Shown piece by piece: positions 9,772-63,060 of a DNA stretch of 64,000 nucleotides. How positions within the stretch are numbered: the stretch's first letter is position 1; the number at the start of each line of letters is the position of its first letter. The position numbers and the translations under genes are program-made. The notes below the pieces were generated by a model that was given only the letters and a program-made list of their open reading frames with translations, was not told the DNA's origin and did no database searches. This DNA is from Candidatus Multivorans sp. GTDB taxonomy: Bacteria; Acidobacteriota; Thermoanaerobaculia; Multivoradales; Multivoraceae. The stretch spans positions 3,232,001-3,296,000 of the forward strand of contig OZ251997.1 in NCBI GenBank assembly GCA_965247095.1, given 5' to 3'.

Positions 9772-9878
9772 GACGCCGGCTCCGCCGGCTCCTGCATCGT
9801 CAGCCGATACACCAACGGGAGGTCGACGTGACCATGGACGTGACCATGGACCGGATCCGTGATACCGTCGGCGGCACC

Positions 9879-10196
9879 ATGGAACGGACGATCAAGGCCT
9901 CGGAATTCAAGGCCACCTGCCTCAAGCTGATGGACGAGGTCGCCGAGAGCGGCGCCGAGGTGGTCATCACCAAGAACGGCAAACCCGTGTCGCGGCTCGT
10001 GCCGTACCGGGAACGGCCGAAGAGCCTGTACGGCTGCCTTCGCGGTGTGATGGAGATCACCGGCGACATCATGTCTCCCGTGCTGGATGAATGGGACGAA
10101 GAGCGGACAGTTGCCCTCTGTCATCCGGGGCGAGGATCCCGATTGAGCGAGATGCGCCGTTGCTGCTCCTCGACACACACGTTCTGCTCTGGCTGA
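9879..10196 (+). CDS. Phd/YefM-family antitoxin
   Basis: TIKASEFKATCLKLMDEV...VVITKNGKPV.RLVP; directly upstream of a PIN toxin. Confidence 0.88.
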   Translation: MERTIKASEFKATCLKLMDEVAESGAEVVITKNGKPVSRLVPYRERPKSLYGCLRGVMEITGDIMSPVLDEWDEERTVALCHPGRGSRLSEMRRCCSSTHTFCSG

Positions 10197-10558
10197 CCCT
10201 CGGCGACCGGCGCCTCGGAGCGGGCGCTCACCGCGCGGTCGACGAGGCCTTCCTCTCCGGCAACGCCGCGGTGTCCGCGGTGTCCTTCCTGGAGATCGCG
10301 ACCCTGCTGAGGAAAGGTCGCGTCCAGATCGATTGGGCCGTGGAGGCGCTGCGGCGATATCTCCTGGATCACAGCCTGAACGAGATCCCGGTGGACGGAG
10401 ACATTGCGTTGCGGGCGGGCCTCCTCACCGAGCTGCACGGCGACCCGGCCGACCGGATCATCGTCGCCACCGCACTGGCCGGCCACCGCCTCGCCACCGC
10501 CGATCGGCGGCTGCTCGACTGGCCCGGCGAAGTGGCTCGGCTTCGCGCGACCGACTGA
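10160..10558 (+). CDS. vapC: VapC-family PIN-domain toxin
   Basis: LLLDTHVLLW, SAVSFLEI, HGDPADRIIVATA and LATADR motifs. TTG start assumed. Confidence 0.88.
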   Translation: MLLLDTHVLLWLTLGDRRLGAGAHRAVDEAFLSGNAAVSAVSFLEIATLLRKGRVQIDWAVEALRRYLLDHSLNEIPVDGDIALRAGLLTELHGDPADRIIVATALAGHRLATADRRLLDWPGEVARLRATD

Positions 10559-10704
10559 CTGCCATCGGGACGCCCAGCCGGGCGACGCGGGTTGCGGCAT
10601 GCGATTGCATATAGTACGTCGCCCAACGAGCAGGAGAAGGAACCTCGTCTATGCCCAGATCAAAGCCCCAAGTTCACGCCGTTGACTTGTCGTACCCGCC
10701 TCGC

Positions 10705-25278: not shown

Positions 25279-26397
25279 CTAGTGTACTGTCTCCAACATG
25301 GCTTTACCACGTGTAACCTTTGCGATGATGCTGTCGGCGGTGGCCGTCCAGACGAACGGCCGGGAGTTTTCGTTGCTGTGCTCCACGTAGTCGTAGATGG
25401 TCTTTACGAGGTCGTTGACGCTCTGGAATGCACCGCGCCGGATCGCCTTCGTGGTCAGACCGCCCAGCCAGCGTTCGACCAGGTTGAGCCAGGGCGACGA
25501 AGTGGGAATGAAATGGAAGTGGAAGCGAGGCTTTCGCTCCAGCCATGCGCGCACGGCGTCGTGTTTGTGGGTCTGGTAGTTGTCCAGGATCAGGTGCAGG
25601 TCGAGATGCTTCGGGATCTCACGGTCGAGACGCTTGAGGAAACGGAGAAACTCCTGGTGGCGCTGCCGGCCCATGCACTCCGCGATCACCGTGCCCTCCA
25701 ACACGTTCAGCGCAGCGAACAACGTCGTCGTCCCGTTGCGCTTGTAGTCGTGGGTCATCGTTCCCGCGCGGCCGCGCTTGAGCGGCAAGCCCGGCTGGGT
25801 CCGGTCCAGAGCCTGGATCTGGCTCTTCTCGTCCACGCACAGCACAAGCGCGTTCTCGGGCGGATTCCGGTACAGGCCCACAACGTCCCGCAGCTTTTCC
25901 ACGAACCTGGGGTCGTTGCTCAGCTTGAACGTCTTGACCAGATGGGGCTTCAGCCCGTGCGCCACCCAGATGCGCTGGACCGCCGCCGGACTGATGCCCT
26001 GGGCCCGAGCCATCGAACGCACGCTCCAGTGGGTCTGACCGGGCGGCTTCTCGTGCAGCGTCGCTTCGATCACTTTACGCACGACCGACTCCGAGAGCGG
26101 CGGCTTTCCGCAACCGCGGGGACGATCCCTGGTCAGCCCCGAAGGTCCGTCCTCCGCGAACCGACGACGCCACAGCAGCACCGTGGGCCGCGAAACGCCG
26201 AGTTTCGCCGCAATCGCCCGATTGGCCGTGCCCTCCGCCGCAGCGAGCACGATCCGGCTACGCCGGACCGTGCGTTGCGTCGTCGTCGGCGCCTCTACCC
26301 ATTTCTTGAGAAGCGCTCGATCCCTCTCTTCGATGTGAAGTCGTTCCGCTGGTTCCCACATGAACGGAATACTGACGAACTTGCCCGAAACTGTCAA
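25279..26397 (-). CDS. IS630-family transposase
   Basis: HTH region, CVDEKSQIQAL, THDYKRNGTT.LFAAL, ILDNY.THK and SPWLNLVERW; the stop codon is supplied by the target CTAG. Confidence 0.95.
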   Translation of the reverse strand: MTVSGKFVSIPFMWEPAERLHIEERDRALLKKWVEAPTTTQRTVRRSRIVLAAAEGTANRAIAAKLGVSRPTVLLWRRRFAEDGPSGLTRDRPRGCGKPPLSESVVRKVIEATLHEKPPGQTHWSVRSMARAQGISPAAVQRIWVAHGLKPHLVKTFKLSNDPRFVEKLRDVVGLYRNPPENALVLCVDEKSQIQALDRTQPGLPLKRGRAGTMTHDYKRNGTTTLFAALNVLEGTVIAECMGRQRHQEFLRFLKRLDREIPKHLDLHLILDNYQTHKHDAVRAWLERKPRFHFHFIPTSSPWLNLVERWLGGLTTKAIRRGAFQSVNDLVKTIYDYVEHSNENSRPFVWTATADSIIAKVTRGKAMLETVH

Positions 26398-33345: not shown

Positions 33346-34169
33346 CAAACCACCTCCCCCAGATCGAAGACCGGGCCGTGCCGGCAGCACAGTGCGTAAC
33401 CGCCCTTCTTGAGCGGCACCGCGCAGCCGAGGCAGGCGCCGTAACCGCAACCCATCGGGGTCTCCATCGCTGCTTCCCCCTCGATGCCGTGATCGGCGGC
33501 GATCCGCGCCACCGCAGCCATCAGACCGTGGGGACCGCAGGTGCAGAGCGCCCTGTACGCCGCCCCTGCCTCCGTCCCGCCGTCCTTGAGGGTCGCCGCA
33601 AGCGCCTCAGTGACCAACCCTCGGCCGCCGGCGGTGCCGTCCTCCGTCGTCCTGACCAACCGACCGCCGGTGCTTTCGCTCAAGCGCCGGAATTCTCCGG
33701 CCTCGACCAGATCGTCCGCGCTGCGACCGCCGTAGTAGAAGTCGAAAGGCCTGCCGGCACGCGCCAACGCCTGAGCCAACAGACCCAGGCCAGCCGATCC
33801 GATGCCGCCCGCAACCAACGCGGCGCGGCCGCCGCGCGGCGGATCGGATGCCATACTGTGAAATCCGGTGCCCAAGGGACCGAGAACGGGGATGTCTTGA
33901 CCCGGGGTACAGGCCGCCAGGTTCTCCGTTCCCCGGCCGATCACCTTGCCGAGCAGAGAGATCGCCAGCGCCCCGTTTCCGGCCGGCGCCTGGTCGTAGA
34001 CCGAGAACGCCCGCCTCAGGTACGGCTCCGCCTGGTTGGCGCCAGCCACCATGACGAACTGACCGGGCGCGGCGGGCGCCATGCCGGCCACCCGGATCCG
34101 GAGCAGGAAGTGCCGAAGAGGCAACGCCTGGACCTCGAGTACTTTCCCTCTCGCGTCCAGCGCCGCCAT
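33342..34169 (-). CDS. pyrK: Dihydroorotate dehydrogenase electron-transfer subunit
   Basis: PGQF, LRRAFS, GPLG.GF, AGGIG, CGP and MGCGYGACLGC..CC..GPVF motifs. Confidence 0.92.
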   Translation of the reverse strand: MAALDARGKVLEVQALPLRHFLLRIRVAGMAPAAPGQFVMVAGANQAEPYLRRAFSVYDQAPAGNGALAISLLGKVIGRGTENLAACTPGQDIPVLGPLGTGFHSMASDPPRGGRAALVAGGIGSAGLGLLAQALARAGRPFDFYYGGRSADDLVEAGEFRRLSESTGGRLVRTTEDGTAGGRGLVTEALAATLKDGGTEAGAAYRALCTCGPHGLMAAVARIAADHGIEGEAAMETPMGCGYGACLGCAVPLKKGGYALCCRHGPVFDLGEVVW

Positions 34170-34257
34170 GGCGCGAGCGAGGGTAGCACTCCTGGGACGC
34201 TCCGGTCGAAGCCGAGCGGCAATCCAGACCCCGCGGCCGCCCGGTAGAGTGGTCCCA

Positions 34258-35937
34258 GTGAATCGCGAACGGCTCCTCAGTTGCGCTGCGTGCGCGATAC
34301 CCGGCCTCCTGGCCGGGATCCACTTGGCGGGGCTCCTCTTCTTCCTCAATCCGCACCTGCCGTTTCATCCGGGACCGGTGTTCCGGACCAGCGTCTACTA
34401 CGGGTTGCTTGGGGCCCTCAGCACGATGGCGGTGCTGATCCCCATCTCATGGCGGGCGCCCGAACGTTCCCTGCGGCTGCTTCCCTGGTGCCTCGCGGCC
34501 GTGTTCGGCGCCGCTGCCGGCCTCGACCTTGCGCACGCGGCCTTCTACGATCAGTTCCTGCCGCCAGGCATCCACGATCGCCTGATCAAGGCCGGACTCT
34601 GGCTGGCCCTGGCGGCAGCGGTCACGCTCTACACCGCGTTTCTTCACACCTACCGCCGGCAGAGGCCCTACGGGGCCCGCAGCCGCTTCGGCATCGCCAG
34701 CCTGGCAGTGCTGACCGTGTACTCGGTCTTCGAACGGCGCGAGGCCTTCGAGCCGCCGCCGCAGAGGAAGCCTCGAGCGGCGGCGATCGAGTCCACACCG
34801 CCGCCCAACCTCCTGATCGTGGGCCTCGATGGCGGATCGCTCGACGCCATCCTGCCCCTCTCCGAACAGGGGCTGCTCCCGTTCTTCTCACAGACCATGC
34901 GAGCCGGCAGCTACGGCCGCGCCGAGTCCATCGAACCGGCGAGTCGCCTGCCTCTCTGGACCACGGTGGTTACGGGTAAATACCCTTTCCGGCACGGCGT
35001 CGTATCCGAGGAGACCTGGGGCGCGCCGTCGCTTCGCGGCGAGCGCTTCCACCTGACGCCCCGCGGTATCGCCTTCGGCGTTTGGGGCGACCGCGGCATG
35101 CCCGAGGGCGGCCCGGCGGTCCTGCCTTCCGCCCCGTCCCTCTGGCAGATCGCGGCGGGATTCGGCCTCGACGTGTTCGCACTCGACTTCGGCGTCGGCC
35201 TCACCGGCTCCAACGTCGGCCGGACCGCGGCCCTTGGTTCAGCCATGGAGGACGAGCGGCTGGCCCGGCTCGGAGACGGCCCGCCATCCGCGCTCTATAC
35301 CGCGGCGCTCCGTGACCTGGAGACCCATACCCAACTGCTGGCGATCCTCGAGTCTCGATCACAGGACGACGATTCAGGGCTCGTCGTCTTTGCGGTGATG
35401 GACGGTCTGGCCGCGGTCTCGCACCTCTACTACGACTCCTACGAGGCGGTTCAGTTCGACGGCGATCAGAAGCCGGTTCGCGTCGACCGGGCGCGCTGGC
35501 TGTCCTCCTACTACGCGTTCGTGGACGGTCTGGTGGCCGAGGCCTGGCAGCAACTGCCGCAGCCCCGGATGCTGGCGGTGGTCAGCGCCTACGGTTGGAG
35601 GCGGTCCGGGCCCCTGCGTCGCCTGTTGCGCGTACGGGGCAAGGCGCCCGGCGGGACGGGGGGCGGTTCCCAGAACACGCCCGACGGACTGCTCCTGTTG
35701 CGGGGACAGGGAATCAACGAGGACCTTCTCCTGACCCGGCTCGGCATCCAGGACGTGGCGCCAACCCTGCTCTACGCTCTGAACCTGCCGACCGCGCTCG
35801 ACATCGACGGCCGCGTGATCACCGAGGCCTTCGAGCCGTCGACGCTGGCTCGCCGGCCGATCGCCTTCGTGCCGTCCTACGAAACGAAGACCGGTACCGC
35901 GCGCCAACCCGGGTGGCGCGATCCGCGCCGCCCGTGA
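34258..35937 (+). CDS. Membrane-anchored alkaline phosphatase superfamily (type I phosphodiesterase-like) protein
   Basis: N-terminal TM helices, IVGLDG, WTT..TGK.P..HGV, VVSAYG, DVAPTLL..L.LP...DGR and VPSYE. Confidence 0.75.
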   Translation: MNRERLLSCAACAIPGLLAGIHLAGLLFFLNPHLPFHPGPVFRTSVYYGLLGALSTMAVLIPISWRAPERSLRLLPWCLAAVFGAAAGLDLAHAAFYDQFLPPGIHDRLIKAGLWLALAAAVTLYTAFLHTYRRQRPYGARSRFGIASLAVLTVYSVFERREAFEPPPQRKPRAAAIESTPPPNLLIVGLDGGSLDAILPLSEQGLLPFFSQTMRAGSYGRAESIEPASRLPLWTTVVTGKYPFRHGVVSEETWGAPSLRGERFHLTPRGIAFGVWGDRGMPEGGPAVLPSAPSLWQIAAGFGLDVFALDFGVGLTGSNVGRTAALGSAMEDERLARLGDGPPSALYTAALRDLETHTQLLAILESRSQDDDSGLVVFAVMDGLAAVSHLYYDSYEAVQFDGDQKPVRVDRARWLSSYYAFVDGLVAEAWQQLPQPRMLAVVSAYGWRRSGPLRRLLRVRGKAPGGTGGGSQNTPDGLLLLRGQGINEDLLLTRLGIQDVAPTLLYALNLPTALDIDGRVITEAFEPSTLARRPIAFVPSYETKTGTARQPGWRDPRRP

Positions 35938-35977
35938 ACCAGTCCGTGCGCCCGTCATCGGGTGCATGGATGACACC
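35906..35977 (+). repeat. Two-hairpin dispersed element, copy A (homologous to 62611-62684)
   Basis: AACCCGGGTGGCGCG-ATC-CGCGCCGCCC-GTGAACCAG-TCCGTGCGCCCG-TCAT-CGGGTGCATGGA. Confidence 0.85.
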
Positions 35978-36109
35978 CTGACCGCGGGCGGAAACGCCGT
36001 GGCTACTCGGGCTGGTCGGCGGATCCGGCGTCGCCGGCCGAGGAATCGGCCGACGGGGCTGTGCCTCCCGGAAGAGCGAATCGCTGGAGGGCTGGATCGG
36101 AGTCCTTAG

Positions 36110-38067
36110 TCTGAAGTTCTGAGGCTTGAAACGTGAGATCCGCTGTAGTGGCGGGGCTTTGCGGCGATTTCGGGGTGTTGTCTACTGGGTACGTTCGGTC
36201 AAGGTCGGACCTTGAGGAGGTTGAAGGCCTGGGCCTGTAGTGGCGTCGGTCGAGCGAGGACGTTGGCGGAGACGGCGGCTGCGGCGACGGGTCGCACCTG
36301 GTTACGGGTGAGCGTGGCCAGATCGGCGAGGAGTGTCTGGAAGCTGTGGACGGGAAATCCGTCGGGGGTGCGTTTGCTGGCCGCCTTGGCGCGGGCCGAG
36401 AGCGACCGCCTTGCGGGTTGGACCGGCGAGCTGCGGTGGTCGCGGCGGTCCTGATCGTCGAAGAGCAGCGGCGCGAGGAGGCGTCGCATGTGCCACTCGA
36501 CGTAGTAGGCGAGCATGCACAGGAAGACGTGGGCTCGCACCCGTTCGGCGAGGCGGTGGTGTACGGGGCGCACTTTCAGATCGACGCTCTTGTAGCTGCG
36601 GAAGGCGCGCTCGACGTGGCTGAGGCTCTTGTAGGAGCGGACCGCGGAGGCGGCCGGGAGATCGGTTTCGGGGACGTTGGTGCGGATGACGTAAAAGCCG
36701 TCGAGGGCGGCCTCCTCGGCGATGCGCTCTTCGTTGCGTTGGTACCCGAAGCCGTCGTCCGAGACCTCGACGTCGAAGTGCTTGCCGACCTTGTGGGCGC
36801 GCAGCGCCCGGTCGACGCGCACGGCGATGTTCTTCGTGCCCCGCAGCGGCTTCTTTGGGCGCTGCGTCGCCTGGACCACCTTCTCCAGCTTGGCTTCGGT
36901 GGCAGCTAGAAGCTGCAGCCGCTTGCGACTCCGGCGGACTTCAAGGAGTGGGTTCTTGCACACCACCAGGCGCTCCCCCGGATACAGATCGGGGGCGCTG
37001 ATCTCCGCCATGTCCCGCTCGTCGAAGAGCGACAGTTGCAGATGGCCCTGGTGCACCAGTTTGCGTATCGCCGGGGCGCGCAGGGCGCTGATCCAGGACA
37101 AACCGCTCGGTTCCAGGTCCTCGCGGATGCGGGCGTCGGTGATCAGCCCCCGGTCGCCGACCAGCACGACCCGCTCCAGCGAGAACCGCTTGCTGAGCTT
37201 GTGCACCTGGGAGCTCAGCGTCTTGGGATCGGCGGTGTTGCCTGAGAAGACCTCGACCGCGACCGGGCAGCCGTCCCGGTTGCAGAGCAGGCCGAAGACG
37301 ATCTGGGGCTTGCCCGGCTTGCCGTCCTTGGAGTATCCGTGCCGGGCCAACCGGCACTTCGAGCCCTCCATGTAGACCGAGGTCACGTCGCACAGGACCA
37401 GGCAACCGTTCTCCAGGTGTCGCTCGGCCAGCCGCCGCTCGATGCGCTCCTGCCGCCTGAGCAGCCAGTCCATGGCGGCGTAGAGTTCGTCCGCTTCAGC
37501 CTCCTCGACGCCGAGCTCCTCGCCGAGGGTGTGGGTGGTGGTTTCGCTTGCGAGTCCGCGCGCGGTGGCGAGCTTGGAGCGGGGATCGAGGATGCGCGCA
37601 ACGATCATCGCCATGACGAGCGCTCGTTGTCGGGAAGGTCGTCGATCGAGGAGAGGTTCGAGTCCGAGTCGTCTGGCGGCGCCGAGGGTGGCGGCGACAT
37701 GTCCGTGGGGTATGGAGCGGAGGATGTCGAAGACGGAGTCGAGCGAGGGCAGGGCCACTCCGCCCTTGAGCAGGATGCGCAGCCCCTCGACGAGTTCGTC
37801 GGGCCACTTGGAGAGGTTGGCGAGGGTGCGTTTCCTGACCTTTCCGTCTTGCCTGTAGGACTCGCGCAGGAGGACGGCTGGCGGTGAGTTGCGGTTGCGC
37901 ACACGTTCAACGTACATGGCTTCGCATTGTACAGTAGAATCATTGTTATGTCTACTCTGCTTTCTACTATTACATGGCTACACTCTGCAGCTCCATGAAC
38001 GCCGAAAACCCAAGCCACGTCTACCACTATCCGCGGTTCAGACCCTCAGAATGACCAGAACTTCGGC
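36110..38067 (-). mobile_element. IS1634-family insertion sequence, inside the 3' end of the bactofilin gene
   Basis: Ends TCTGAAGTTCTG / CAGAACTTCGGC, flanked by direct repeat TTAG (36106-36109 and 38068-38071). Confidence 0.88.
36199..37917 (-). CDS. IS1634-family DDE transposase
   Basis: LLRESYR.DGKV.KRTLANL, DVTS.Y.EG, VGDRG, VERAFR..K and RVRAHVFLCMLAY motifs. Confidence 0.93.
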   Translation of the reverse strand: MYVERVRNRNSPPAVLLRESYRQDGKVRKRTLANLSKWPDELVEGLRILLKGGVALPSLDSVFDILRSIPHGHVAATLGAARRLGLEPLLDRRPSRQRALVMAMIVARILDPRSKLATARGLASETTTHTLGEELGVEEAEADELYAAMDWLLRRQERIERRLAERHLENGCLVLCDVTSVYMEGSKCRLARHGYSKDGKPGKPQIVFGLLCNRDGCPVAVEVFSGNTADPKTLSSQVHKLSKRFSLERVVLVGDRGLITDARIREDLEPSGLSWISALRAPAIRKLVHQGHLQLSLFDERDMAEISAPDLYPGERLVVCKNPLLEVRRSRKRLQLLAATEAKLEKVVQATQRPKKPLRGTKNIAVRVDRALRAHKVGKHFDVEVSDDGFGYQRNEERIAEEAALDGFYVIRTNVPETDLPAASAVRSYKSLSHVERAFRSYKSVDLKVRPVHHRLAERVRAHVFLCMLAYYVEWHMRRLLAPLLFDDQDRRDHRSSPVQPARRSLSARAKAASKRTPDGFPVHSFQTLLADLATLTRNQVRPVAAAAVSANVLARPTPLQAQAFNLLKVRP

Positions 38068-44395: not shown

Positions 44396-44419
44396 GTTCT
44401 TTCCTTCCTACGGCGTTCT

Positions 44420-44943
44420 TGGCGGAGAGGGTGGGATTCGAACCCACGGACCGCTCGCACGGTCACAGGGATTCTCGGGAGACCGCCCGGCGGGCTCGTC
44501 CGAAGCATGGCGGAGAGGGTGGGATTCGAACCCACGGACCGCTCGCACGGTCACAGGGATTCTCGGGAGACCGCCCGGCGGGCTCGTCCGAAGTATGGCG
44601 GAGAGGGTGGGATTCGAACCCACGGACCGCTCGCACGGTCCAAGGATTCTCGGGAGACCGCCCGGCGGGCTCGTCCGAAGTGTGGCGGAGAGGGTGGGAT
44701 TCGAACCCACGGACCGCTCGCACGGTCCAAGGATTCTCGGGAGACCGCCCGGCGGGCTCGTCCGAAGTGTGGCGGAGAGGGTGGGATTCGAACCCACGGA
44801 CCGCTCGCACGGTCCAAGGATTCTCGGGAGACCGCCCGGCGGGCTCGTCCGAAGTGTGGCGGAGAGGGTGGGATTCGAACCCACGGACCGCTCGCACGGT
44901 CCAAGGATTCTCGGGAGACCGCCCGGCGGGCTCGTCCGAAGTG
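44420..44943 (-). repeat. Six tandem 87-88 nt tRNA-Ser-derived units
   Basis: Units start at 44420, 44508, 44596, 44683, 44770 and 44857. Each has the terminal 45 nt of the adjacent tRNA-Ser(CGA) plus a nearly constant 42-43 nt segment. Confidence 0.97.
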
Positions 44944-45033
44944 TGGCGGAGAGGGTGGGATTCGAACCCACGGACCGCTCGCACGGTCAACGGTTTTCGA
45001 GACCGCCCCATTCGACCACTCTGGCACCTCTCC
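44944..45033 (-). tRNA. tRNA-Ser(CGA)
   Basis: GGAGAGG...CCTCTCC-GCCA acceptor, anticodon arm GCGGT-CTCGAAA-ACCGT, long variable arm. Confidence 0.95.
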
Positions 45034-45079
45034 TCGTTCGTCGGCCACTCGGCGCGTTTCGTCTTCTCCTGCCCCAGAA

Positions 45080-45169
<90 letters not shown>

Positions 45170-50032: not shown

Positions 50033-52066
50033 CCGGAACTTCACTTGGCTTGGAAGCACAAAACGGCTGTAATCACGGGGAAGATCTCCAGATTAGGGTG
50101 TCCGGTTGCTGTAAACACGTGTTTCGGGCGGGAGTGCGAGGAGTTCGAAGGCCTTGGCCTGTAGTCGCGTTGGCTCGGCGGTGACCATGAATCGGCTGTC
50201 GGGCTGACCTGGGAGCGTGACCTCGTTGAGGGTCAGGCTTCCGAGGTGGTTCAGCAGATCGGCCATGGCCTGGACGGGGAGGCCCTCGGGCGTGGCTTTG
50301 GATGCAGCCTTCCTCCTCGCGCTGTCGGATGGCCGGGCCTTTTCGACCGGGGTGCAGCGCTTGGCGCGTGCGCCCTCGGGGTCGTCGTCCTCGAAGAGGA
50401 GCGGCGCGAGCGCGCGGCGCATGTGCCATTCAAGGTACCAGGCGAGCATGCAGAGGAAGACATGGGCCCGTACCCGGTTTTCCGCGTAGACATGGATCGG
50501 ACGCACCTGGAGCCGACCGGTCTTGATCGCGCGGAAGGCGCGTTCGACGCGTGAGAGTGCCTTGTAGGCCTCGACCGTCCGCTCGGCGTCGATATCGGCG
50601 TCCGAGAGGCTGGTGCGGATGATGTAGACGCCGTCGAGCCGGGACTCGGCGTCGATCTTCTCCCGGTTGCGCTGCCAACTGATTCCGTCATCGCGCACCT
50701 CGATGTCGAAGTGCTTGCGCATCTTCCACCGGTTGGCCTGTTCGCCGACCGCGGCGTGGATGCGGTCGCGGTTGCTTGCCCCGGGCTGTCGCCTCCGCGC
50801 ACTTGTGGCGATCTCGGCGAGGGCGGCCTCGGTTGCCGCAAGCAGGTCCTCGCGCAGACGCGCCCGTTCCTCGCGCAGACGCGGGTTCAAGCAGACCATC
50901 AGGCGCTCGCCGGGGAAGTCCGGGCTGGTGATCTCGGCGACCTGATCGGCCGCGAGGTCCTCTGGACGAAGCGGCGGCCGGGCGTCCTCCCCGGGCTCTC
51001 GCGCGACGAGCAGCTTTCGGATCTCGGTGGTCTTCAGCGCCGAGATCCAGTCGAGCCCGGCGGGCTTGACGTCCTCACGGATGCGCGCGCTGGTGAGCAT
51101 GCCCCGATCCCCGACCAGTGCGATCCGCTCGATGCGAAAGCGCTTGCGGAGCTTGAGCACCTGAGAGCTCACCGTGGACGGGTCACTGACATTGCCCGAG
51201 AAGACTTCGACGGCCACCGGACACCCGTCGGCGCTGCAGAGAAGCCCGTAGGTGATCTGTTTCTTGCCTTTCTTCCCGTCCCGGTTGTGGCCGAAGGCGG
51301 CGAGCGGGCAGCACCTGCCCTCCACGAAGCTTGAGCTGACGTCGTAGAGGATCAGAGTCCCTCCGGCAAGATGCCGCCTCGCGAGACTGGCTTCGATGTG
51401 ACGCTGCCGACCGTGAAGCCAGTCGAGCATGGCGAGCATCTCGTTGCCGGTGACGTGCCCGAGCCCCAGGATGGCCCCGAGACTCGAGGCGGCCGTGTCT
51501 GGGGAGAGATGCCGTGCGGTGGAGAGCTTCGAGGCAGGGTCGATGATGCGGGCGACGACCGCGGCGAGGGCGAGCTTGCCGCAGCGTGTGCTCTTGCGGT
51601 CGAGGATGCGCGGGAGTCCGAGCTTTCGGGCGACGCCGAGGATGGCGGCGACGTGGCCGTGAAGGAGGGCCCTTCGGATGGAGACGGCCTGGTCGATGCC
51701 GGTGAAGACGGCGCCGCCCTTGAGGACGGCGCGGAAACCGTCGACGACGTGCGGCGGGAGCTTGGTCAGGTTTGCGACGGTCTTGTGTCGTACGCGCTTG
51801 CCTTCTCGCCAGGACTGCCGCAGAAGAGTCTGTGGCGAGCGGCCGTGGTTGGAGATGACGTCGATGCGGAAGGACACGTCGCTTCGTCGAGCATGTAAAC
51901 ACTCTGTGGAGAGATCATACAGGGAACAGATAGAGAAGTCTACATGTACACATCATCATGCGTGTAAACAAATATCCAGCACGCCGGCCCGCCCGGAGCG
52001 CCGGGAAATCAACTGCCGTCAGCGATCTACTGCCAAACGCCACCGAAATCGCCCGTGAAGTTCCGA
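50033..52066 (-). mobile_element. IS1634-family insertion sequence (different from the copy at 36110)
   Basis: TIRs CCGGAACTTCAC / GTGAAGTTCCGA, flanked by direct repeat CTAG (50029-50032 and 52067-52070). Confidence 0.9.
50093..51877 (-). CDS. IS1634-family DDE transposase
   Basis: YDVSS...EG, VGDRGM, VERAFR..K and RVRAHVFLCMLA motifs. Confidence 0.93.
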   Translation of the reverse strand: MSFRIDVISNHGRSPQTLLRQSWREGKRVRHKTVANLTKLPPHVVDGFRAVLKGGAVFTGIDQAVSIRRALLHGHVAAILGVARKLGLPRILDRKSTRCGKLALAAVVARIIDPASKLSTARHLSPDTAASSLGAILGLGHVTGNEMLAMLDWLHGRQRHIEASLARRHLAGGTLILYDVSSSFVEGRCCPLAAFGHNRDGKKGKKQITYGLLCSADGCPVAVEVFSGNVSDPSTVSSQVLKLRKRFRIERIALVGDRGMLTSARIREDVKPAGLDWISALKTTEIRKLLVAREPGEDARPPLRPEDLAADQVAEITSPDFPGERLMVCLNPRLREERARLREDLLAATEAALAEIATSARRRQPGASNRDRIHAAVGEQANRWKMRKHFDIEVRDDGISWQRNREKIDAESRLDGVYIIRTSLSDADIDAERTVEAYKALSRVERAFRAIKTGRLQVRPIHVYAENRVRAHVFLCMLAWYLEWHMRRALAPLLFEDDDPEGARAKRCTPVEKARPSDSARRKAASKATPEGLPVQAMADLLNHLGSLTLNEVTLPGQPDSRFMVTAEPTRLQAKAFELLALPPETRVYSNRTP

Positions 52067-53379: not shown

Positions 53380-54509
53380 GGCCCGGAGTGTATTGGTCCG
53401 TGGGCCAGCGACCTGCCGAGCCCCTTGAAGGACTTGCCCAGCAGCGATGAAGTCGGCAGCTTGTGGATCTCGTCGAGCGGGAACCACTGGAGGTCGCCCC
53501 GGGCTGATCCGCCGCGCGGCGCCCCGGCTTCCGGGTCCTGCCGCTCCGGCCGCCAGCGGGCGAGCGCAACCCGCACGACGAAGTCCCGATAGGTGACCGT
53601 GTGCCGCACCGCGACATCCTCGTCGTCGCATTCCCAGGCGCCGCCGAACTCCACGCGGAGCAGCTCTGCCGCTTCGCTCGCGGACTCATCGCCCCTCCCG
53701 AGTTCGACCGTCGGCAGATGCCAGCGGCCGGCCAGCCAGTCCGCGTCGTGCGGGCGGCGGTGCAGCAGCAAGCCGCGACCACTCTCGACCATCGCCGTGA
53801 AGCAGTGAATCGTCTTTCGGGCTCGACGCGGGCTCGCGACGGGATACGCCCGGGGATCCAGCCCGCTCGTCTGGAAGGCCCTGCAGCCTCGAGCGAGCGG
53901 ACAGGGGCCACAGTCGGGGCGCCGGCGCCGGCAGACGAGCGAACCCACCTCCATCAAGGCCTGATTCGAGTCCCCCGGCCGGTTCGGGTCCAGGAGTCTC
54001 GCCGCGGTCGCCAGCAGGTTCCGTCGGGCTTCGGCCCGCTTGGGCGGCTGCGGGGAAGCCAGGAAACGGCTCAGCACGCGTTCGACGTTGCCGTCGAGCA
54101 CCGGCGCACATTCTCCGCCCAGGCGGCTGGCGAGCAGCGCCGAAGTGTAGGCGCCCGCCCCGGGCAGCTCGCTCCACTCCGCGGCGGTCCGGGGAAACTC
54201 GCCCCGTTCGGCCAGGATGCGGGCGGCCTGATGGAGGTTCCGGGCCCGGCGGTAGTACCCGAGGCCCGACCAGGCGGCCTCGACCTCCTCGACCCCGGCC
54301 GCGGCCAACGTCTCCAGGGTGGGGAACCTGCCTAGGAAGCCCGAATAGCGCGAGGCCACGACCTCGCTCCGGGTCTGCTGGAGCATGACTTCCGCAACCA
54401 GGATCTGGTAGGCATCCTCGGATCGGCGCCACGGCAATTCGCGGTGGCTACGGTCAAACCAGTCCAGTAGCCCGTCCCGAAGCTCCTCTGGTTGAAGTAA
54501 CTGCAACAT
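53376..54509 (-). CDS. mutY: A/G-specific adenine glycosylase MutY
   Basis: LPWR, EVMLQQT, WSGLGYYRRARNL, DGNV.RV and 4Fe-4S C-x6-C-x2-C-x5-C motifs. Confidence 0.94.
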   Translation of the reverse strand: MLQLLQPEELRDGLLDWFDRSHRELPWRRSEDAYQILVAEVMLQQTRSEVVASRYSGFLGRFPTLETLAAAGVEEVEAAWSGLGYYRRARNLHQAARILAERGEFPRTAAEWSELPGAGAYTSALLASRLGGECAPVLDGNVERVLSRFLASPQPPKRAEARRNLLATAARLLDPNRPGDSNQALMEVGSLVCRRRRPDCGPCPLARGCRAFQTSGLDPRAYPVASPRRARKTIHCFTAMVESGRGLLLHRRPHDADWLAGRWHLPTVELGRGDESASEAAELLRVEFGGAWECDDEDVAVRHTVTYRDFVVRVALARWRPERQDPEAGAPRGGSARGDLQWFPLDEIHKLPTSSLLGKSFKGLGRSLAHGPIHSGP

Positions 54510-54709
54510 GGGTCAGAACCTAGGCCGCCGGCGCCGACCGTCGGCGCGATCAGGCCTCAAGAAAAGATGAAGAAAGTGCCCACAAACCTCTTGTTCCCAC
54601 CAAGGCCCACTGCTATCCTGCCCATCTCGCGCAACGGAGACCGCCCGGCCTGAAACCACAGGACACCTGCTTGTCCGAGAACCGCCAGTTTCGGTGCCGG
54701 TCGTCCTGA

Positions 54710-54755
54710 GTTTTTCCACATTGTGCGGAAAAGCTGCGGAACATAGCTCTACAAA
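54710..54755. promoter_or_regulatory. Cluster of DnaA-box-like 9-mers upstream of dnaA
   Basis: TTTTCCACA (54712), TGCGGAAAA (54724) and TGCGGAACA (54736) resemble TTATCCACA or its complement. Confidence 0.6.
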
Positions 54756-54939
54756 GCGGCTTGTCCTTGGCACACGCCCAGGGCATCGGTCGTGACTGCG
54801 CGGTTGGTGTCGGGGGGACAGGTGCGTTTCTGGGAAGAGGAACGGAAAACTGAAGCAGAACGGGTGCCGGTCGCGCTCGAAGACGGGGGCGCGCCTTCCC
54901 TGACTGGGGACAGGAACGGCACTGAACGGACTGCGCGGC

Positions 54940-56274
54940 ATGCCTAGTTCCGTTTGGCCGACTCTACGCCGCCAGTTGCGCGCCGACCTGCCACCGGACG
55001 AATTCCGCACCTGGTTCTACCCGCTCAGTGTCGCCTCGGAAGACGCCGAGCAGTTGGTCCTCGAAGCGCCGAACTCCCGCTTCGTCGCGGCGCTGGAGGA
55101 AGGCTTCCGGCCCATCGTCGACTGGGCGATCGCGGATCTCAAGGGGCCGACCTTCCAGGTTCTCTTCAAGAGCAGCGATGCGATCAGACGGACCGCCCGG
55201 CCGGCGGCGACTTCCCGAAGGACACCGGTGGCTGTCGATGACGACGCGGCCGCCGGCAGCTCCCTCAACCCCCAGTATCGCTTCGACTCGTTCGTGATCG
55301 GCAACTCGAACCGCTTCGCCGCCGCCGCCTCCCAGGCAGTGGCCGAGAAGCCCGGAATCGCCTACAACCCGCTCTTCCTCTACGGCGGTGTGGGCTTGGG
55401 CAAGACCCACCTCCTGCACGCGATCGGGAACCGCCTTCGGGCTACCGCCCCGGGTACGCGCGTGGTCTATCTGGCCGCCGAAGACTTCGTCAACGACCTG
55501 ATCACCTCGATCCGGTTCGAGCGCATGCCCGCCTTCCGGGAGCGCTACCGGACGATCGACGTCCTCCTGGTCGACGACATCCAGTTTCTGGCCAGGAAGG
55601 AGCGATCGCAGGAGGAGTTCTTCCACACCTTCAACGTGCTCTATACACGGCAGAAGCAGATCATCGTCACCTCCGACGCGCAGCCGCGGGATCTGGCCGA
55701 GATGGAAGAGCGGCTACGGAGTCGTTTCGGCTCCGGTCTGCTCGCGGACATCCAGCCCCCGGACCTGGAAACCAAGGTCGCCATTCTCCAGCGCAAGGCC
55801 CGCCAACTCCAGGGCCTGGATCTCGACACCGATGTCGCCCTCTTCATCGCCCGGCAAGTGCACTCCAACGTGCGGGAACTCGAGGGGCTGCTCAACCGGG
55901 TTACCGCCTTCGCATCGCTCTCCGGCGCGCGTCTCGACCTGGACTTCGCCAAGGAGGCGCTGCGCGATGTTCTCCCTGAGCACGACCGTCCCGTGTTCCC
56001 GGCGCAGATCGTCAAGCTGGTTGCCCATCACTACGGGCTCAAGGTGCGCGAGATCAAGAGCAAGAGCAACTCGCGGCAGATCACCTATCCCCGGCAGATC
56101 GCTATGTACCTCTGCAAACGACTGACCGAGATGTCCTATCCGGAGATCGGCCGGTTGTTCAACGGCAAACACCACTCGACGGTCATGTACTCCGTCGAGC
56201 AGATCGAGCGGCGCCGCGGCGAGGACGAGCGTCTGGCCGCTCAACTGGAGCGCTTTACCCGTCAATTCAGTTGA
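54940..56274 (+). CDS. dnaA: Chromosomal replication initiator DnaA
   Basis: [45 protein letters not shown] and HSTV motifs. Confidence 0.98.
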
Positions 56275-56459
56275 ACCGAGCTTCAACTCTGTCGAACCTG
56301 TTGAACCTGTTGAACCGGGCTTCAACTCTGTTGAGCCCGGCGCGCGCGCCCGAAGACAAACCCCTGGCGCCACCTGGAAGACGAACATCCTGCGGAATCC
56401 CAGCGGATCGGCCCTGGAGCGAACAGTGTGGCAGCGGCGGATTGACCGAGCGCCCGTTT

Positions 56460-56660
56460 CGGCCATTCTGTGGACAGTATTCGAGGCTGCTGCGACCGCG
56501 GCGCAAAACTCCGCAGAATGCACAACGAGTCCACCGCTTCATCCACCACTTACTATCAGGGGTCATCGGCCATAAGTTACTCTATTAAAATGATTTACAT
56601 CGCACATGCACAGACGCGCCCGAAGCCTTCTACGACTACTTGGATGGTGTATATTGACTC
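56460..56660. other. Probable oriC unwinding region (dnaA-dnaN intergenic)
   Basis: Box-like TGTGGACAG and TCATCCACC, AT-rich CATAAGTTACTCTATTAAAATGATTTA, and trio-like CTACGACTACT after a GC-rich spacer. Confidence 0.65.
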
Positions 56661-56676
56661 CCTGAGGAGAGCGTAG

Positions 56677-57789
56677 ATGAAGACCACGGTTGAACGAAGA
56701 GAACTGCTAACCGAACTCGCGGCGATGCGCGGCATCGTGGAAAGCAGGTCGACGATTCCGGTCCTGTCCCACCTCCTGTTGCGGGTTCGTGAGAACCGGC
56801 TGGAACTGGCGGCGACCGATCTCGATGTTTCGCTCACGTCTTCGTGCGCGGCCGAGGAAGGGTCCAGCGAGCCGGGCGCCACAGCCGTTCAGGCGCGCAA
56901 ACTCCTGGAGATCGTCCGCGCCCTCGGTGACGGTCCGGTCGAGTTGTCGACCGGCGAGTCGAACTCGCTCCACATCGCTGCCGGCTCCTCGCGGTTCCGC
57001 ATCAACGGTCTCTCGGCCGAGGATTTTCCGACTCTGCCCGCGGTCGATCCCGACTCGGCCTCCGCATCCTTCGAGGTGCCGTTTGCCGACTTCAAGCGAA
57101 TGATCGGCAAGGTCATCTTCGCGGTCTCCGCCGAAGAGTCACGGTTCCAGTTGAACGGCGCGCTGCTCAAGCTCAAGGACGGCGCAGTCGAGTTGGTGGC
57201 CACGGACGGCCACCGCCTCGCCCTGATCCAGGTGGAGATGTCCGGCGTAGCCGAGGCGGACGGTGTGCTGGCGCCGCGCAAGGCGTTGTTGGAACTGATG
57301 CGCTTCGACAGTGACGAGAGCGTCACCTTCCGGCGCGGCGAGCATCATCTCGCCTTCGTGATAGGGCGTCGCGAGTTGACCTGCCGCATCCTGGAGGGCA
57401 CGTTCCCGGACTACGAGAAGGTCATCTCGAAGGACAACGACCAGAAGACCACCTTCGACCGCCAGGAGCTCTCCGAGGTCGTCCATCGCGTTTCTCTGCT
57501 GACCGGCGATCGGGCACCCATGGTGAGGTTCAAGTTCGACGCCCAGTCGCTGCTCGTGTCGTCGTCCAATCCAGATATGGGAGAGGCCGAAGAGAGCCTC
57601 GAATGCGACTATGAGGCGGAGAATCTGGAGATAGGCATGAACCCCGCCTACGTGCGGGACTTCCTGGGCGCGGTCGATACCGACCGGGTCGAGTTCGCGC
57701 TGAAGGACGAGAACAGCCAGTGCCTCGGACAACCGGTTGACGGCGCCGATTCGCGCTACCTGTGCGTGATCATGCCGATGCGGATCTAG
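56677..57789 (+). CDS. dnaN: DNA polymerase III beta clamp
   Basis: TIPVLS, ATDL, VATDGHRL, G.FPDY and VIMPMRI motifs. Confidence 0.97.
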   Translation: MKTTVERRELLTELAAMRGIVESRSTIPVLSHLLLRVRENRLELAATDLDVSLTSSCAAEEGSSEPGATAVQARKLLEIVRALGDGPVELSTGESNSLHIAAGSSRFRINGLSAEDFPTLPAVDPDSASASFEVPFADFKRMIGKVIFAVSAEESRFQLNGALLKLKDGAVELVATDGHRLALIQVEMSGVAEADGVLAPRKALLELMRFDSDESVTFRRGEHHLAFVIGRRELTCRILEGTFPDYEKVISKDNDQKTTFDRQELSEVVHRVSLLTGDRAPMVRFKFDAQSLLVSSSNPDMGEAEESLECDYEAENLEIGMNPAYVRDFLGAVDTDRVEFALKDENSQCLGQPVDGADSRYLCVIMPMRI

Positions 57790-60396: not shown

Positions 60397-63060
60397 GTGA
60401 CTAAGGGCGACCCCCCCATCGGGCCCCCGCCGGAATCGCCGCCAGGATCGCCGCCGGAGCGGTCCGCGCCGGGCCACGACACGGTGCCGGTCCAGCTCGA
60501 GCGCGAGATGCGCCGGAGCTACCTCGATTACGCGATGAGCGTGATCATCGGCCGCGCGCTGCCGGATGTCCGCGACGGCTTGAAGCCGGTTCATCGGCGC
60601 GTGCTCTTCGGCATGTGGGAGGCCGGCAACACAGCCGGGCGCGCGTACAAGAAGTCGGCGCGCATCGTCGGCGACGTGATGGGCAAATACCACCCTCACG
60701 GCGACGGCCCCATCTACGACACGGTGGTGCGGTTGGCGCAGGACTTCTCCATGCGCTACCCCCTGGTCGACGGCCAGGGCAACTTCGGGTCGATCGACGG
60801 CGACAACCCGGCGGCGATGCGCTACACGGAGGTGCGCTTAACGCGGATCGCCGAGGAGATGCTGCGCGAGGACATCAACAAGGACACCGTCGACTGGGTG
60901 CCGAACTACGACGGTTCGGAACAGGAGCCGTTGCCTCTCCCGGCGCGGATACCGAACCTGCTGGTCAACGGTTCGGCCGGCATCGCGGTCGGCATGGCCA
61001 CGAACATCCCGCCCCACAACCTCGGCGAAGCGATCGCGGCAGTCAAGCTGCTGATCGACCGTCCCCAGGCGTCACTGGACGAGCTGATCGAGCTCATCCC
61101 CGGGCCGGACTTCCCGACCGGAGGGTTCATCCACGGTCGCGCGGGCATCCGTAGCGCCTATGAGACGGGACGCGGTTCGATTCAGGTGCGCTCTCGCGCC
61201 GACATCGAGGACAGGGGTTCGGACCGGCAGTCGATCATCGTCACCGAGATTCCCTACCAGGTGAACAAAGCGCGGCTGATCGAACGGATCGCCGAACTGG
61301 TGCGTGAGAAGAAGCTCGAGGGCATCCGCGATCTGCGCGACGAGTCCGACCGCGACGGCATCCGCATCGTGATCGACCTGAAGCGGGGCGAGGTGGCCGA
61401 GGTCATCCTGAACACCCTCTACAAGATGACCAAGCTCCAGGTCAGCTACGGCATGAACATGCTGGCGATCGTCGACAACCAGCCTCAGGTCCTGAGCCTG
61501 CACGACCTGCTGCGCCACTTCCTGGACCATCGCCGCACGGTCGTCGTCCGGCGCTGCCGCTACGAGTTGGCCCGGGCGGAACAGCGGGCCCATGTGATCG
61601 AGGGTCTGCTCGTCGCTCTCGATCATCTGGACGAGGTGATCGCCGCGATCCGCGCCAGCCGCACGCCGCCGGAGGCCCGGGTGAGACTCACCCTGGACTT
61701 CGCCCTGACCGAGCCCCAGGCGCAGGCGATCCTCGACATGCGCCTGCAGCGATTGACCGGACTCGAGCGCGAGAAGATCCAGGAGGAGTACGCCGAGCTG
61801 ATCGCCGAGATCGGGCGGCTGCGCGCCATTCTGGGTTCGGACGCGCTGCTGCTGGCGGAAATCCGAGGTGAACTCGACGCGATCGAAAAGCGCTATAGCG
61901 ATCCGCGCCGCACCGAGATCCTGGCCCACTCCTCCGACATCACGATCGAGGACATGATCGCCGACGAGGACATGGTCATCACGGTGACGCGATCGGGCTA
62001 CGTCAAGCGCTCACCGCTCAGCTTGTACCGGGCCCAGCATCGCGGCGGCAAGGGCCGAACCGGCATGGCGACGAGGGATGGCGACTTCGTCGAGCAGCTC
62101 TACGTCGCATCCGCCCACAGCTATGTCCTAGTGTTCACCGACCGGGGCCACTGCTACTGGCTCAAGGTGCACCAGATCCCCCAGATGGGCCCGGCGGCGC
62201 GGGGCAAGGCGATCGTCAATCTGCTGCGGCTCGACAGCGGCGAGACGGTCGCCGCTACGGCCGCGGTGCGCGAGTTCCCGGAAGACCGCTTCCTGACCTT
62301 CGCCACCGAGGCCGGCGTGGTGAAGAAGACAGCTCTGTCCCACTACTCGCGCCCCCGCCCCAGTGGCATCATCGCGCTGAGGATCGACGAGTCCGACCGC
62401 CTCCTGACGGTCAAGGTCACCGACGGCGGCAGCGACCTGGTGCTGGCGACGCGGATGGGCTACTCGGTCCGGTTCCCCGAGAGCGACCTGCGCTCCTTGG
62501 GGCGGGCGACCCGGGGCGTGCGCGGGATCCGTCTGCGCCGCGGCGACCGGGTCGTCTCGATGGAGTGCCTGCAGGCGCCGGCGCCGGAGGCTGACGAACC
62601 CGGGTGGCGCGAACCCGGGTGGCGCGAATCCGCGCCACCCGCGAACCAGTCCGAGCGCTCGTCATCGAGCGCTCGGATGGAACCGCTGCCGCCGGAGACG
62701 ATGCTGCTTACGGTCAGCGAGAACGGCTTCGGCAAGCGCACCGCGCTCGGCGAGCACCGCCGCCAGTCGAGGGGAGGCCTCGGGATCATCAATCTCAAGG
62801 TCTCAGACAGGACCGGCGCCGTGGTCGGTGTCCGGGAGGTGACGGACGACACCGGCCTGATGCTGATCACTCACGAGGGGAAGATCATCCGCATCACCGC
62901 GGGCAGCGTGTCCCGGATCGGGCGCGCCACCCAAGGGGTCAAGGTCATGGACATGGGCGACGGGGACCGGATCGTCGCCCTGGCCCGGATCCCGGACCGC
63001 GGTGAGGAGGACGAAGAGGATGTCGACGCCGCGGCCGACGATGCTGAACCGATCAACTAG
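60397..63060 (+). CDS. gyrA: DNA gyrase subunit A
   Basis: [27 protein letters not shown] and GyrA-box QHRGGKG motifs. Confidence 0.97.
62596..62684 (+). repeat. Two-hairpin dispersed element, copy B, in frame within the gyrA CTD, with a 15-nt tandem duplication of its 5' end
   Basis: (GAACCCGGGTGGCGC)x2 then GAATCCGCGCCACCC-GCGAACCAG-TCCGAGCGCTCG-TCAT-CGAGCGCTCGGA. Confidence 0.85.

Follow-up and report, generated by a model that had tools for sequence, protein, structure and literature searches.

Introduction

Selfish palindromic repeats that lie in frame within protein-coding genes are best known from Rickettsia. The Rickettsia palindromic elements (RPEs) are ~150 bp long, and nearly half of the copies in some families are intragenic, according to an account that also summarizes the in-frame insertions and suggests that similar processes may operate elsewhere (PMC10969869). 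Here we describe a compact two-hairpin repeat carried by gyrA in a 64-kb stretch of "Candidatus Multivorans" sp. (contig OZ251997.1, positions 3,232,001 to 3,296,000), the whole of which we call the window. The element is a nonautonomous repeat of ~68 to 69 nt that is specific to a Thermoanaerobaculia ("Ca. Multivorans"-like) clade of Acidobacteriota. It is dispersed over many unrelated sites, most of them intergenic; orthologous sites may hold or lack it, and the number of its modules varies.

A second described group to which the element can be compared is that of the repetitive extragenic palindromes (REPs). As defined in one account, REPs are G+C-rich stem-loops with stems of 5 to 13 bp, mostly extragenic and situated between unidirectional or convergent genes; two superfamilies are defined by terminal GTAG or CGTC tags, and RPEs are put in the CGTC type. 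The same account reports REPs inside genes, many of them replication or repair genes, where they encode 20 to 30 residues, and notes intragenic REPs in a few proteobacteria and in Opitutus (PMC3733652). The phenomenon is thus known, though the present element has neither tag.

The element shares with RPEs its nature as a short palindromic repeat that is found between genes and also in frame in unrelated conserved genes, with a peptide that the fold tolerates and, so far, no mobilizing enzyme found in either case. It differs in length (~69 nt versus ~150 bp), in the location of its DNA-found copies (0 of 39 intragenic among the matches listed), and in its flank, which is GAAC here and a CGTC end in RPEs (PMC3733652), the likeness to RPEs being one of description only. 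The hosts differ as well, a high-G+C Acidobacteriota clade represented by environmental assemblies in one case and obligate intracellular alphaproteobacteria in the other. The analogy with RPEs had been drawn in a first-pass annotation of this DNA, and it held up: the element occurs in frame in GyrA, YchF (at two sites), and Lhr and also has intergenic copies. We found no description of the family in the literature covered, which did not extend to subscription-only papers, and it is apparently undescribed so far. It is a new family and an architectural variant (two-hairpin, GAAC-tagged) within the known REP/RPE-like intragenic palindromic repeats, real and not unprecedented.

Results

The first-pass annotation had noted one two-hairpin element at two places in the window, and both copies were confirmed (Table 1). 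They align over 62608-62688 and 35902-35981 with 90% column identity. The stem 1 pattern and a 23-nt pattern across the stem 1/linker/stem 2 junction each match only these two window sites, a count reached in 0 of 100 shuffles. A covariance model built from the window copies (R1) scored copy 1 at 108.4 bits and copy 2 at 102.1 bits over the aligned intervals. A family-based model (R2) gave copy 1 97.7 bits over 62608-62688 and, with filters off, detected no third copy in the 64-kb window. The two copies are on the same strand and on opposite sides of the oriC/dnaA region, an arrangement that, with n = 2, is uninformative on replication bias.

Both copies fold on the plus strand. With RNA parameters, copy 1 reached -57.5 kcal/mol (z = -6.5) and copy 2 -47.7 kcal/mol (z = -4.5); with DNA parameters, the z scores were -7.1 and -4.2. 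Stem 1 is 10 to 11 bp long. The differences within stem 2 were as originally described, an A-T to T-A and a T-A to C-G replacement together with two G-T wobbles. The minus strand of copy 2 shows no folding beyond that of shuffled sequence (z = -1.8 with RNA and -1.2 with DNA parameters), because the two G-T pairs turn into A-C. In copy 1, exact matches to the 15-nt unit are found at 62597 and 62612, and this tandem duplication accounts for the doubled EPGWR in GyrA; the number of 15-nt units in relatives is 0, 1, 2, or 3. Copy 2 is not purely intergenic, since the phosphodiesterase-family open reading frame (ORF) that ends in it derives its final 10 codons (QPGWRDPRRP) and its TGA stop (35935-35937) from it. 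In the gyrA copy, five of six frames are open. The same starting frame meets TGA in copy 2, whose hairpin 1 has a 3-nt loop.

Further copies had been predicted, and a covariance search found them. Contigs of species-representative genomes were scanned for exact matches to stem 1 alone, which returned at least 114 loci; the window's own genome is not among these, and all copy numbers are lower bounds. Because the scan demanded an exact stem 1, the invariance of stem 1 is by construction, and the linker and stem 2 are unascertained. When these loci were searched with R1 (cut of at least 48 bits, default filters), at least 39 full copies were found in 37 of 114 loci, with scores of 48.6 to 100.8 bits; inclusion of the window brings the number to 41. 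This and the following locus counts are among the matches listed. All 37 loci come from 18 related assemblies labeled Thermoanaerobaculia, Candidatus Multivorans, or Acidobacteria, one of the 18 being labeled Vicinamibacteraceae. The remaining 77 loci (Streptomyces, Microbacterium, Alphaproteobacteria, etc.) hold a G+C-rich palindrome only, with a top score of 41.6 bits; the association of stem 1, linker, and stem 2 is therefore clade specific and not due to chance.

Genic and intergenic positions were called from third-position G+C, which marks real frames, and from Pfam matches on the flanks. By these calls, all 39 nonwindow copies are intergenic, in both orientations. Four or five lie in long stop-free stretches, upstream of the points where uppP, accC, purS, and a signal-peptide gene truly start, and two (at loci L052 and L092) overlap a stop codon, like window copy 2. 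The neighboring genes are unrelated, housekeeping, and different from locus to locus (PurS, BacA, AccC, S4, PFK, SRP54, and others). Transposases of any kind are absent among the 49 ORF fragments on the flanks. Adjacent gene ends comprise 31 3' ends versus 21 5' sides, and the gene-element pairs are sense in 19 cases versus antisense in 33, that is, without a sense bias.

The core has a constant order: a 5' tetranucleotide, hairpin 1 with a 3- or 4-nt loop, a near-invariant GAAC linker, hairpin 2 with a TCAT loop, and a tail. The tetranucleotide is GAAC in 22 of 37 parsed copies and CAAC, GCAC, TTGC, or similar in the rest; the tails consist of TG followed by ACAC, GCAC, GCAG, or GAAC. Two subfamilies extend the core. 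Type I (16 copies aligned) measures ~110 to 135 nt and has a closing helix that encloses both hairpins, and type II (L043, L045, L049, and L068) has ~135 nt in common. Module number varies as well: L022, located between a metallo-hydrolase-like gene and purS, has three 15-nt and three 54-nt units, L066 has three whole units in tandem, and at L007 two whole units are present, against one at each of the orthologous loci L025 and L095. An all-against-all BLAST of the listed loci revealed no shared flank of insertion sequence (IS) size that might represent an autonomous parent; the longest blocks in common measured 130 to 250 nt, except among the truly orthologous loci L007, L025, and L095. At L042:119-521, a type I copy directly adjoins an array of four tRNA genes.

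Many of these properties recall REPs and their composites, the bacterial interspersed mosaic elements (BIMEs) and the inverted REP doublets known as REPINs. In the REP account, as here, there are G+C-rich hairpins of comparable stem size (10 to 11 and 12 bp in our case), many copies, an intergenic location near gene ends in both orientations, clustering with arrays in tandem, G-T pairs, and some copies within genes (PMC3733652). A true REP/BIME-type system, served by a single-copy domesticated REP-associated tyrosine transposase (RAYT), is one alternative, and we consider it unlikely while allowing it a real chance. Neither hairpin has a GTAG or CGTC terminal tag. The unit consists of two nonidentical hairpins that point the same way, with a conserved linker between them and in one subfamily an optional closing helix around them, and is not a REPIN-type inverted doublet. 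No RAYT was found in the window or in the locus flanks.

Base pairing was analyzed in the alignment of 41 copies; stem 2 had played no role in finding them. Stem 2 is paired in 95% of cells, and double changes are seen at 5 of its 12 pairs (14 cells), which was reached in 0 of 500 shuffles; slid controls gave 1 to 3 double-changed pairs and 28 to 48% pairing. The closing helix of type I has double changes in 4 of 6 pairs, and the orthologous copies at L025 and L095 differ by one C-G to G-C swap. On the element strand, G-T cells number 13 and A-C cells 5, an asymmetry that is suggestive only, because the copies are related. These observations support either selection for a single-stranded fold or repeated correction of the palindrome by template switching, with DNA and RNA not told apart. 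Of the selection on single-stranded structure proposed in the first-pass annotation, the compensatory changes are thus borne out, and template switching fits them too.

A structured RNA, either a cis-regulatory motif or a family of small RNA genes, could have hairpins selected at the RNA level and in-gene copies that are incidental. It would explain the compensatory changes in stem 2 and in the closing helix, which creates a three-way junction, as well as the strand asymmetry of G-T and A-C cells and the excess of copies facing gene 3' ends over those facing 5' sides. We think it rather unlikely, however. The orientation of genes and elements shows no sense bias, which argues against a role as part of host mRNAs, and tandem module expansion and presence or absence in coding loops are repeat-like, not regulator-like. 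Rfam 15 had no match at either window site at gathering thresholds, and permissive scans (10 loci and 62400-62900) produced only sub-threshold chance matches. A hammerhead ribozyme was also considered for the type I junctions and rejected: compared by eye, they are unlike the hammerhead core, and no Rfam ribozyme model matched.

A third subfamily brings in MITEs (miniature transposable elements with inverted repeats). Type III, seen at four loci of one Thermoanaerobaculia assembly (L028, L035, L072, and L112), is a ~250-nt MITE with perfect 18-nt terminal inverted repeats and the core in its middle, with flanks in which TA or TAG may mark the ends. Together with the three DDE transposase genes of the window, one of them 218 nt from copy 2, these four copies would suit a classical MITE moved by a DDE transposase, for example, of the IS630 or IS4/IS5 type present in the window. 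We regard this as very unlikely, since the 69-nt unit in gyrA, ychF, and lhr lacks terminal inverted repeats and ends in different hairpins, no variable target-site duplication was seen at the filled sites, and no convincing inverted repeat ties copy 2 to the adjacent DDE transposase gene. What the core does share with MITEs is that it is nonautonomous, short, multicopy, and able to make in-frame fusions, and the type III carrier is a true MITE; the core differs in being without inverted ends and, as read at filled sites, in showing no variable duplication. The three window transposase genes themselves comprise one IS630-like gene (DDE_3 and HTH domains) and two diverged DDE_Tnp_1 genes that share a 97-nt stretch with 81% identity; no terminal repeats were identified.

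We turn to the gyrA site. The best relatives of the window GyrA are 92 to 94% identical, the named ones being Acidobacteriota, Holophagales, or Thermoanaerobaculia metagenome-assembled genomes, and this homology places the window in the same clade as the element-bearing loci. In an alignment of the window protein with 66 database relatives of GyrA, the insert is present in 9 of the relatives and absent from 57. Empty sites had been anticipated, and the 57 include sisters at 93 to 94% identity (P0006 and P0007), in which PAPETD is directly followed by QPQPPE; P0003 has the element between identical flanks. The composition of the insert varies among its carriers. Two 15-nt units are combined with one 54-nt unit in the window GyrA and P0004; two 54-nt units are present in P0002, P0005, and P0003, the last of these without any 15-nt unit. 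Diverged versions are present in P0008, P0009, P0019, P0030, and P0032, and within GyrA the insert peptide diverges far more than the remaining protein. In a FastTree phylogeny computed with the insert region masked and without support values, insert bearers occupy at least five separate positions and have empty sisters.

Across the clade, the loop that holds the insert site has 10 to 18 residues, versus 4 in distant relatives, GyrAs at 66 to 73% identity having a 4-residue turn there. The solved C-terminal domain of Xanthomonas campestris GyrA (3L6V, compared with window positions 61954-63057) has its own acidic insert of ~35 residues at the same loop. The short turn of the distant GyrAs and the 3L6V insert together identify the site as a permissive blade loop, and by these alignments the loop is a recurrent insertion site. 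Given the 57 empty relatives and the 4-residue turn, conservation is not at the protein level.

To look for in-frame copies elsewhere, a word-indexed protein search was run with a 41-residue peptide that represents a single reading frame of the element, one of the open frames of the gyrA copy, which leaves four others. It matched the four GyrAs whose inserts are closest to that of the window, two YchF proteins (P0126 and P0127), and an Lhr-type helicase (P0128). The inserted peptides have 23 residues in both YchFs and 24 in Lhr. In YchF the insert occupies a loop after the NxxD region, seen as a gap in the alignment to the solved 1JAL; in Lhr, 51 query residues separate motif I from motif Ia versus 6 in the solved 5V9X. 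By these alignments, no fewer than three housekeeping genes, gyrA, ychF (two sites), and lhr, hold the element in frame, with 23 to 24 residues added to what would be a surface loop in each. All in-frame cases have the same orientation and the same phase, for YchF site 1 and Lhr by ascertainment. That the repeat donates peptide segments to proteins, as the first-pass annotation had it, is consequently upheld by YchF and Lhr, with the qualification that in-frame copies are exceptional.

A phmmer search with the 41-residue peptide against 1.84 billion cluster representatives was blank apart from a lone match (P0129) to a 1,737-aa, highly repetitive, eukaryote-like protein at 37% identity, which was judged a chance repeat match and discarded. 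The blank says little, because representatives at 50% identity would rarely be the insert-bearing allele. In P0128 (427 aa), the sequence past about residue 290 is rich in Arg, Ser, and Gly and no longer aligns to Lhr, which suggests a frameshift or a truncated gene call in the assembly.

Alleles of YchF record several states of the insert. Of 71 aligned sequences, 6 have the full insert (377 aa) and most others have 354 aa, a difference of 23 residues, or 69 nt; at least 8 further sequences have partial, duplicated, displaced, or rearranged versions. The closest empty allele (P0134) has Glu-Leu at the junction, compatible with a preexisting GAAC. Five sequences (P0136 to P0139 and P0150) keep element-derived residues and have lost native loop residues, with a length back at 353 to 363 aa. 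P0148 shows a partial duplication, and in P0164 and P0165 the element is a few residues upstream, which marks a second insertion site. The filled YchF P0127 and the empty GyrA P0017 are probably from one genome.

There is next to no chance that the gyrA segment is an old, lineage-specific, protein-conserved loop whose likeness to copy 2 reflects coincidence or local gene conversion: the clade-wide length of the loop and the diverged inserts in deeper GyrA branches speak for an old loop, but it is refuted by the empty GyrA relatives, by an insert peptide that diverges far more than the rest of GyrA, by the same DNA at 39 or more intergenic places in 18 assemblies and in two other proteins, and by the YchF variants.

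The window is the chromosomal origin region, with a high G+C content of about 67%. In the gene order noted at 54509-56677, mutY on the minus strand is followed by dnaA-dnaN-gyrB-gyrA on the plus strand, with parAB, yidC, and rnpA upstream, and the cumulative GC skew has its minimum around 44 to 56 kb; gene order and skew minimum together place oriC inside the window. The gyrA ORF matches DNA_topoisoIV (PF00521, E = 4.8e-163) and, in five stretches, DNA_gyraseA_C (PF03989), and the catalytic AAMRYTE motif and the GyrA box QHRGGKG are both seen in the translation.

Three other window features are recorded in their own right. On the minus strand, tRNA-Ser(GGA) and tRNA-Ser(CGA) are followed by six near-identical tandem units of 87 to 88 nt, each made of a ~40-nt spacer and the 3' part of tRNA-Ser(CGA) (variable arm, T arm, and acceptor strand). 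None of the units is called a tRNA by ARAGORN or Rfam, and the array, which abuts or overlaps the rnpA ORF, resembles stacked attachment-site remnants. Four to five 288-nt tandem coding repeats with 84 to 89% identity lie within the gene of a 1,751-aa protein that has Big_12, He_PIG, Calx-beta, and Filamin domains. A Phd/YefM antitoxin ORF overlaps a PIN-domain ORF, likely a type II toxin-antitoxin pair.

Table 1. Positions of the element copies, their parts, and other features of the window, with the type III copies at other loci
Feature	Position	Strand	Remarks
Element copy 1	62596..62682	+	In-frame insert of 87 nt (29 codons) with duplicated 5' module, inside the gyrA C-terminal domain
Copy 1, two tandem 15-nt units GAACCCGGGTGGCGC	62596..62625	+	Each consists of the GAAC tag and the 5' arm of stem 1
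Copy 1, hairpin 1	62617..62640	+	Arms 62617-62626 and 62631-62640, loop AATC
Copy 1, linker GCGAACCAG	62641..62649	+	Holds the second GAAC; nearly invariant across the family alignment
Copy 1, hairpin 2	62650..62677	+	12-bp arms 62650-62661 and 62666-62677, loop TCAT
Copy 1, 3' tail TGGAAC	62678..62683	+	Third GAAC, at the right-hand junction
Element copy 2	35905..35976	+	Tag CAAC; hairpin 1 at 35911-35933, loop ATC; tail TGACAC
Copy 2, linker	35934..35942	+	
Copy 2, hairpin 2	35943..35970	+	
ORF ending in copy 2	34081..35937	+	618 aa; type I phosphodiesterase/nucleotide pyrophosphatase family, Pfam PF01663
Type III MITE	L028:476-723, L112:176-422, L035:502-745, L072:500-730		Four different loci, 82-96% identity
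gyrA, host gene	60397..63060	+	887 aa; from ORF list and translation; dnaA-dnaN-gyrB-gyrA origin cluster
parAB, yidC, rnpA, dnaX, recR, dnaA, dnaN, gyrB, gyrA	All within the 64-kb window		From Pfam and ORF calls
DDE transposase genes	25279-26397, 36199-37917, 50093-51877	-	Second gene 218 nt from copy 2
tRNA-Ser genes and tandem array	44416-45169	-	
1,751-aa repeat-containing protein	10651-15906	+	Tandem repeats at 12136-13576
Antitoxin and PIN-domain ORFs	9828-10558	+	Likely type II toxin-antitoxin

Discussion

We consider it probable, with good confidence, that these copies belong to a mobile, nonautonomous, REP/RPE-like repeat family with in-frame members, a statement that takes in what was observed and the first level of inference from it. 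The first-pass annotation of the window had reached much the same overall reading, which is largely supported, with the mobilizing mechanism as the part that we infer.

The element may insert at or beside GAAC, as the protein junctions and the predominance of 5' GAAC among the parsed copies suggest. Within a gene, a copy would survive only if its length were a multiple of three (the 4-nt-loop form, 69 nt net), its frame free of stops, and the loop permissive; copies elsewhere in genes would be removed by selection. As only the version with the 4-nt loop would keep the frame, such survivorship could account for the rarity of in-gene copies, their single length, and their constant location in loops. 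Once inserted, the element may expand, shrink, or be deleted through slippage between its repeated GAACC-type junctions, and in some YchF lineages the element-derived peptide seems to have taken the place of the native loop. With lower confidence, we propose that the hairpins are kept because a trans-acting enzyme reads them in single-stranded DNA and that the peptide it encodes is tolerated as a passenger and does not act as a functional module.

The most likely candidate for such an enzyme is a transposase of the HUH (His-hydrophobic-His), single-tyrosine (Y1) class, of the RAYT or IS200/IS605 kind; taken by itself, an HUH mechanism acting on single-stranded DNA is a tentative idea, possible and short of probable. 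The absence of inverted ends, the two differing hairpins, the fixed flanking tetranucleotide, and the strand asymmetry fit HUH/Y1 enzymes better than DDE enzymes. Miniature elements of the IS200/IS605 group, whose hairpin ends a Y1 transposase recognizes as single-stranded DNA (PMC6006769), would share these four traits, the tetranucleotide being at their left end. An architecture of this type would be compatible with the element. The geometry of IS608 differs from what is seen here, where the left hairpin starts 1 to 2 nt past the tetranucleotide. The HUH/RAYT or IS200/IS605 transposase gene that might be expected to accompany the repeats did not turn up: none of the 44 ORFs in the window and none of the 49 ORF fragments in the flanks gave a Y1/HUH match, with the window and the ~600-nt locus flanks being the only DNA examined. 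Over DNA of this extent, such an absence is weak evidence.

Several further observations count against this reading or parts of it, as does the lack of a transposase match. The covariation was counted over related copies and not over independent events, and compensatory-looking changes in a palindrome can come from template switching without selection. A single old insertion with repeated, partly imprecise deletions would explain the patchy distribution in GyrA as well as repeated insertion would. Some empty gyrA alleles also lack a few flanking residues, which favors an old insertion and repeated deletions, at least within the group of P0001 to P0018, and at the junction it is Gln, and not Glu, that the closest empty alleles of GyrA carry. 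The DNA ends of the element are provisional, being read from filled copies only, and the putative GAAC target is deduced from protein junctions and 5' tags. In-frame copies have GAAC on both sides; elsewhere, a 5' GAAC stands opposite a 3' RCAC or GCAG, again read at filled sites alone. In most copies the 3' tail reads ACAC, GCAC, or GCAG instead of GAAC, unlike a simple target-site duplication. Finally, the four copies within the ~250-nt MITE imply that part of the spread was by hitchhiking.

A bolder proposal, which we regard as unlikely and put forward as speculation, is that the ~69-nt module inserts as an autonomous unit, has GAAC as its target, and travels as a folded single strand, with a three-way junction in type I; that its enzyme is neither a classical RAYT nor an IS200/IS605 TnpA; and that the module is a recurrent source of new surface loops in essential proteins of free-living Acidobacteriota. 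If true, a process like that of the RPEs would be at work beyond reduced intracellular genomes and would have a defined minimal structure.

The findings bear on annotation. The extra 23 to 47 residues in these GyrA, YchF, and Lhr proteins are repeat derived and are not lineage-specific functional domains, and the many intergenic copies that reach stop codons or upstream regions can mislead gene callers. The compact 69-nt unit, with its two hairpins and three GAAC motifs, is well suited to study, and the natural filled, empty, duplicated, and partly deleted alleles of gyrA and ychF could show how such repeats enter and leave essential genes and how loops are remodeled. The family extends in-frame selfish palindromes to a poorly studied acidobacterial class.

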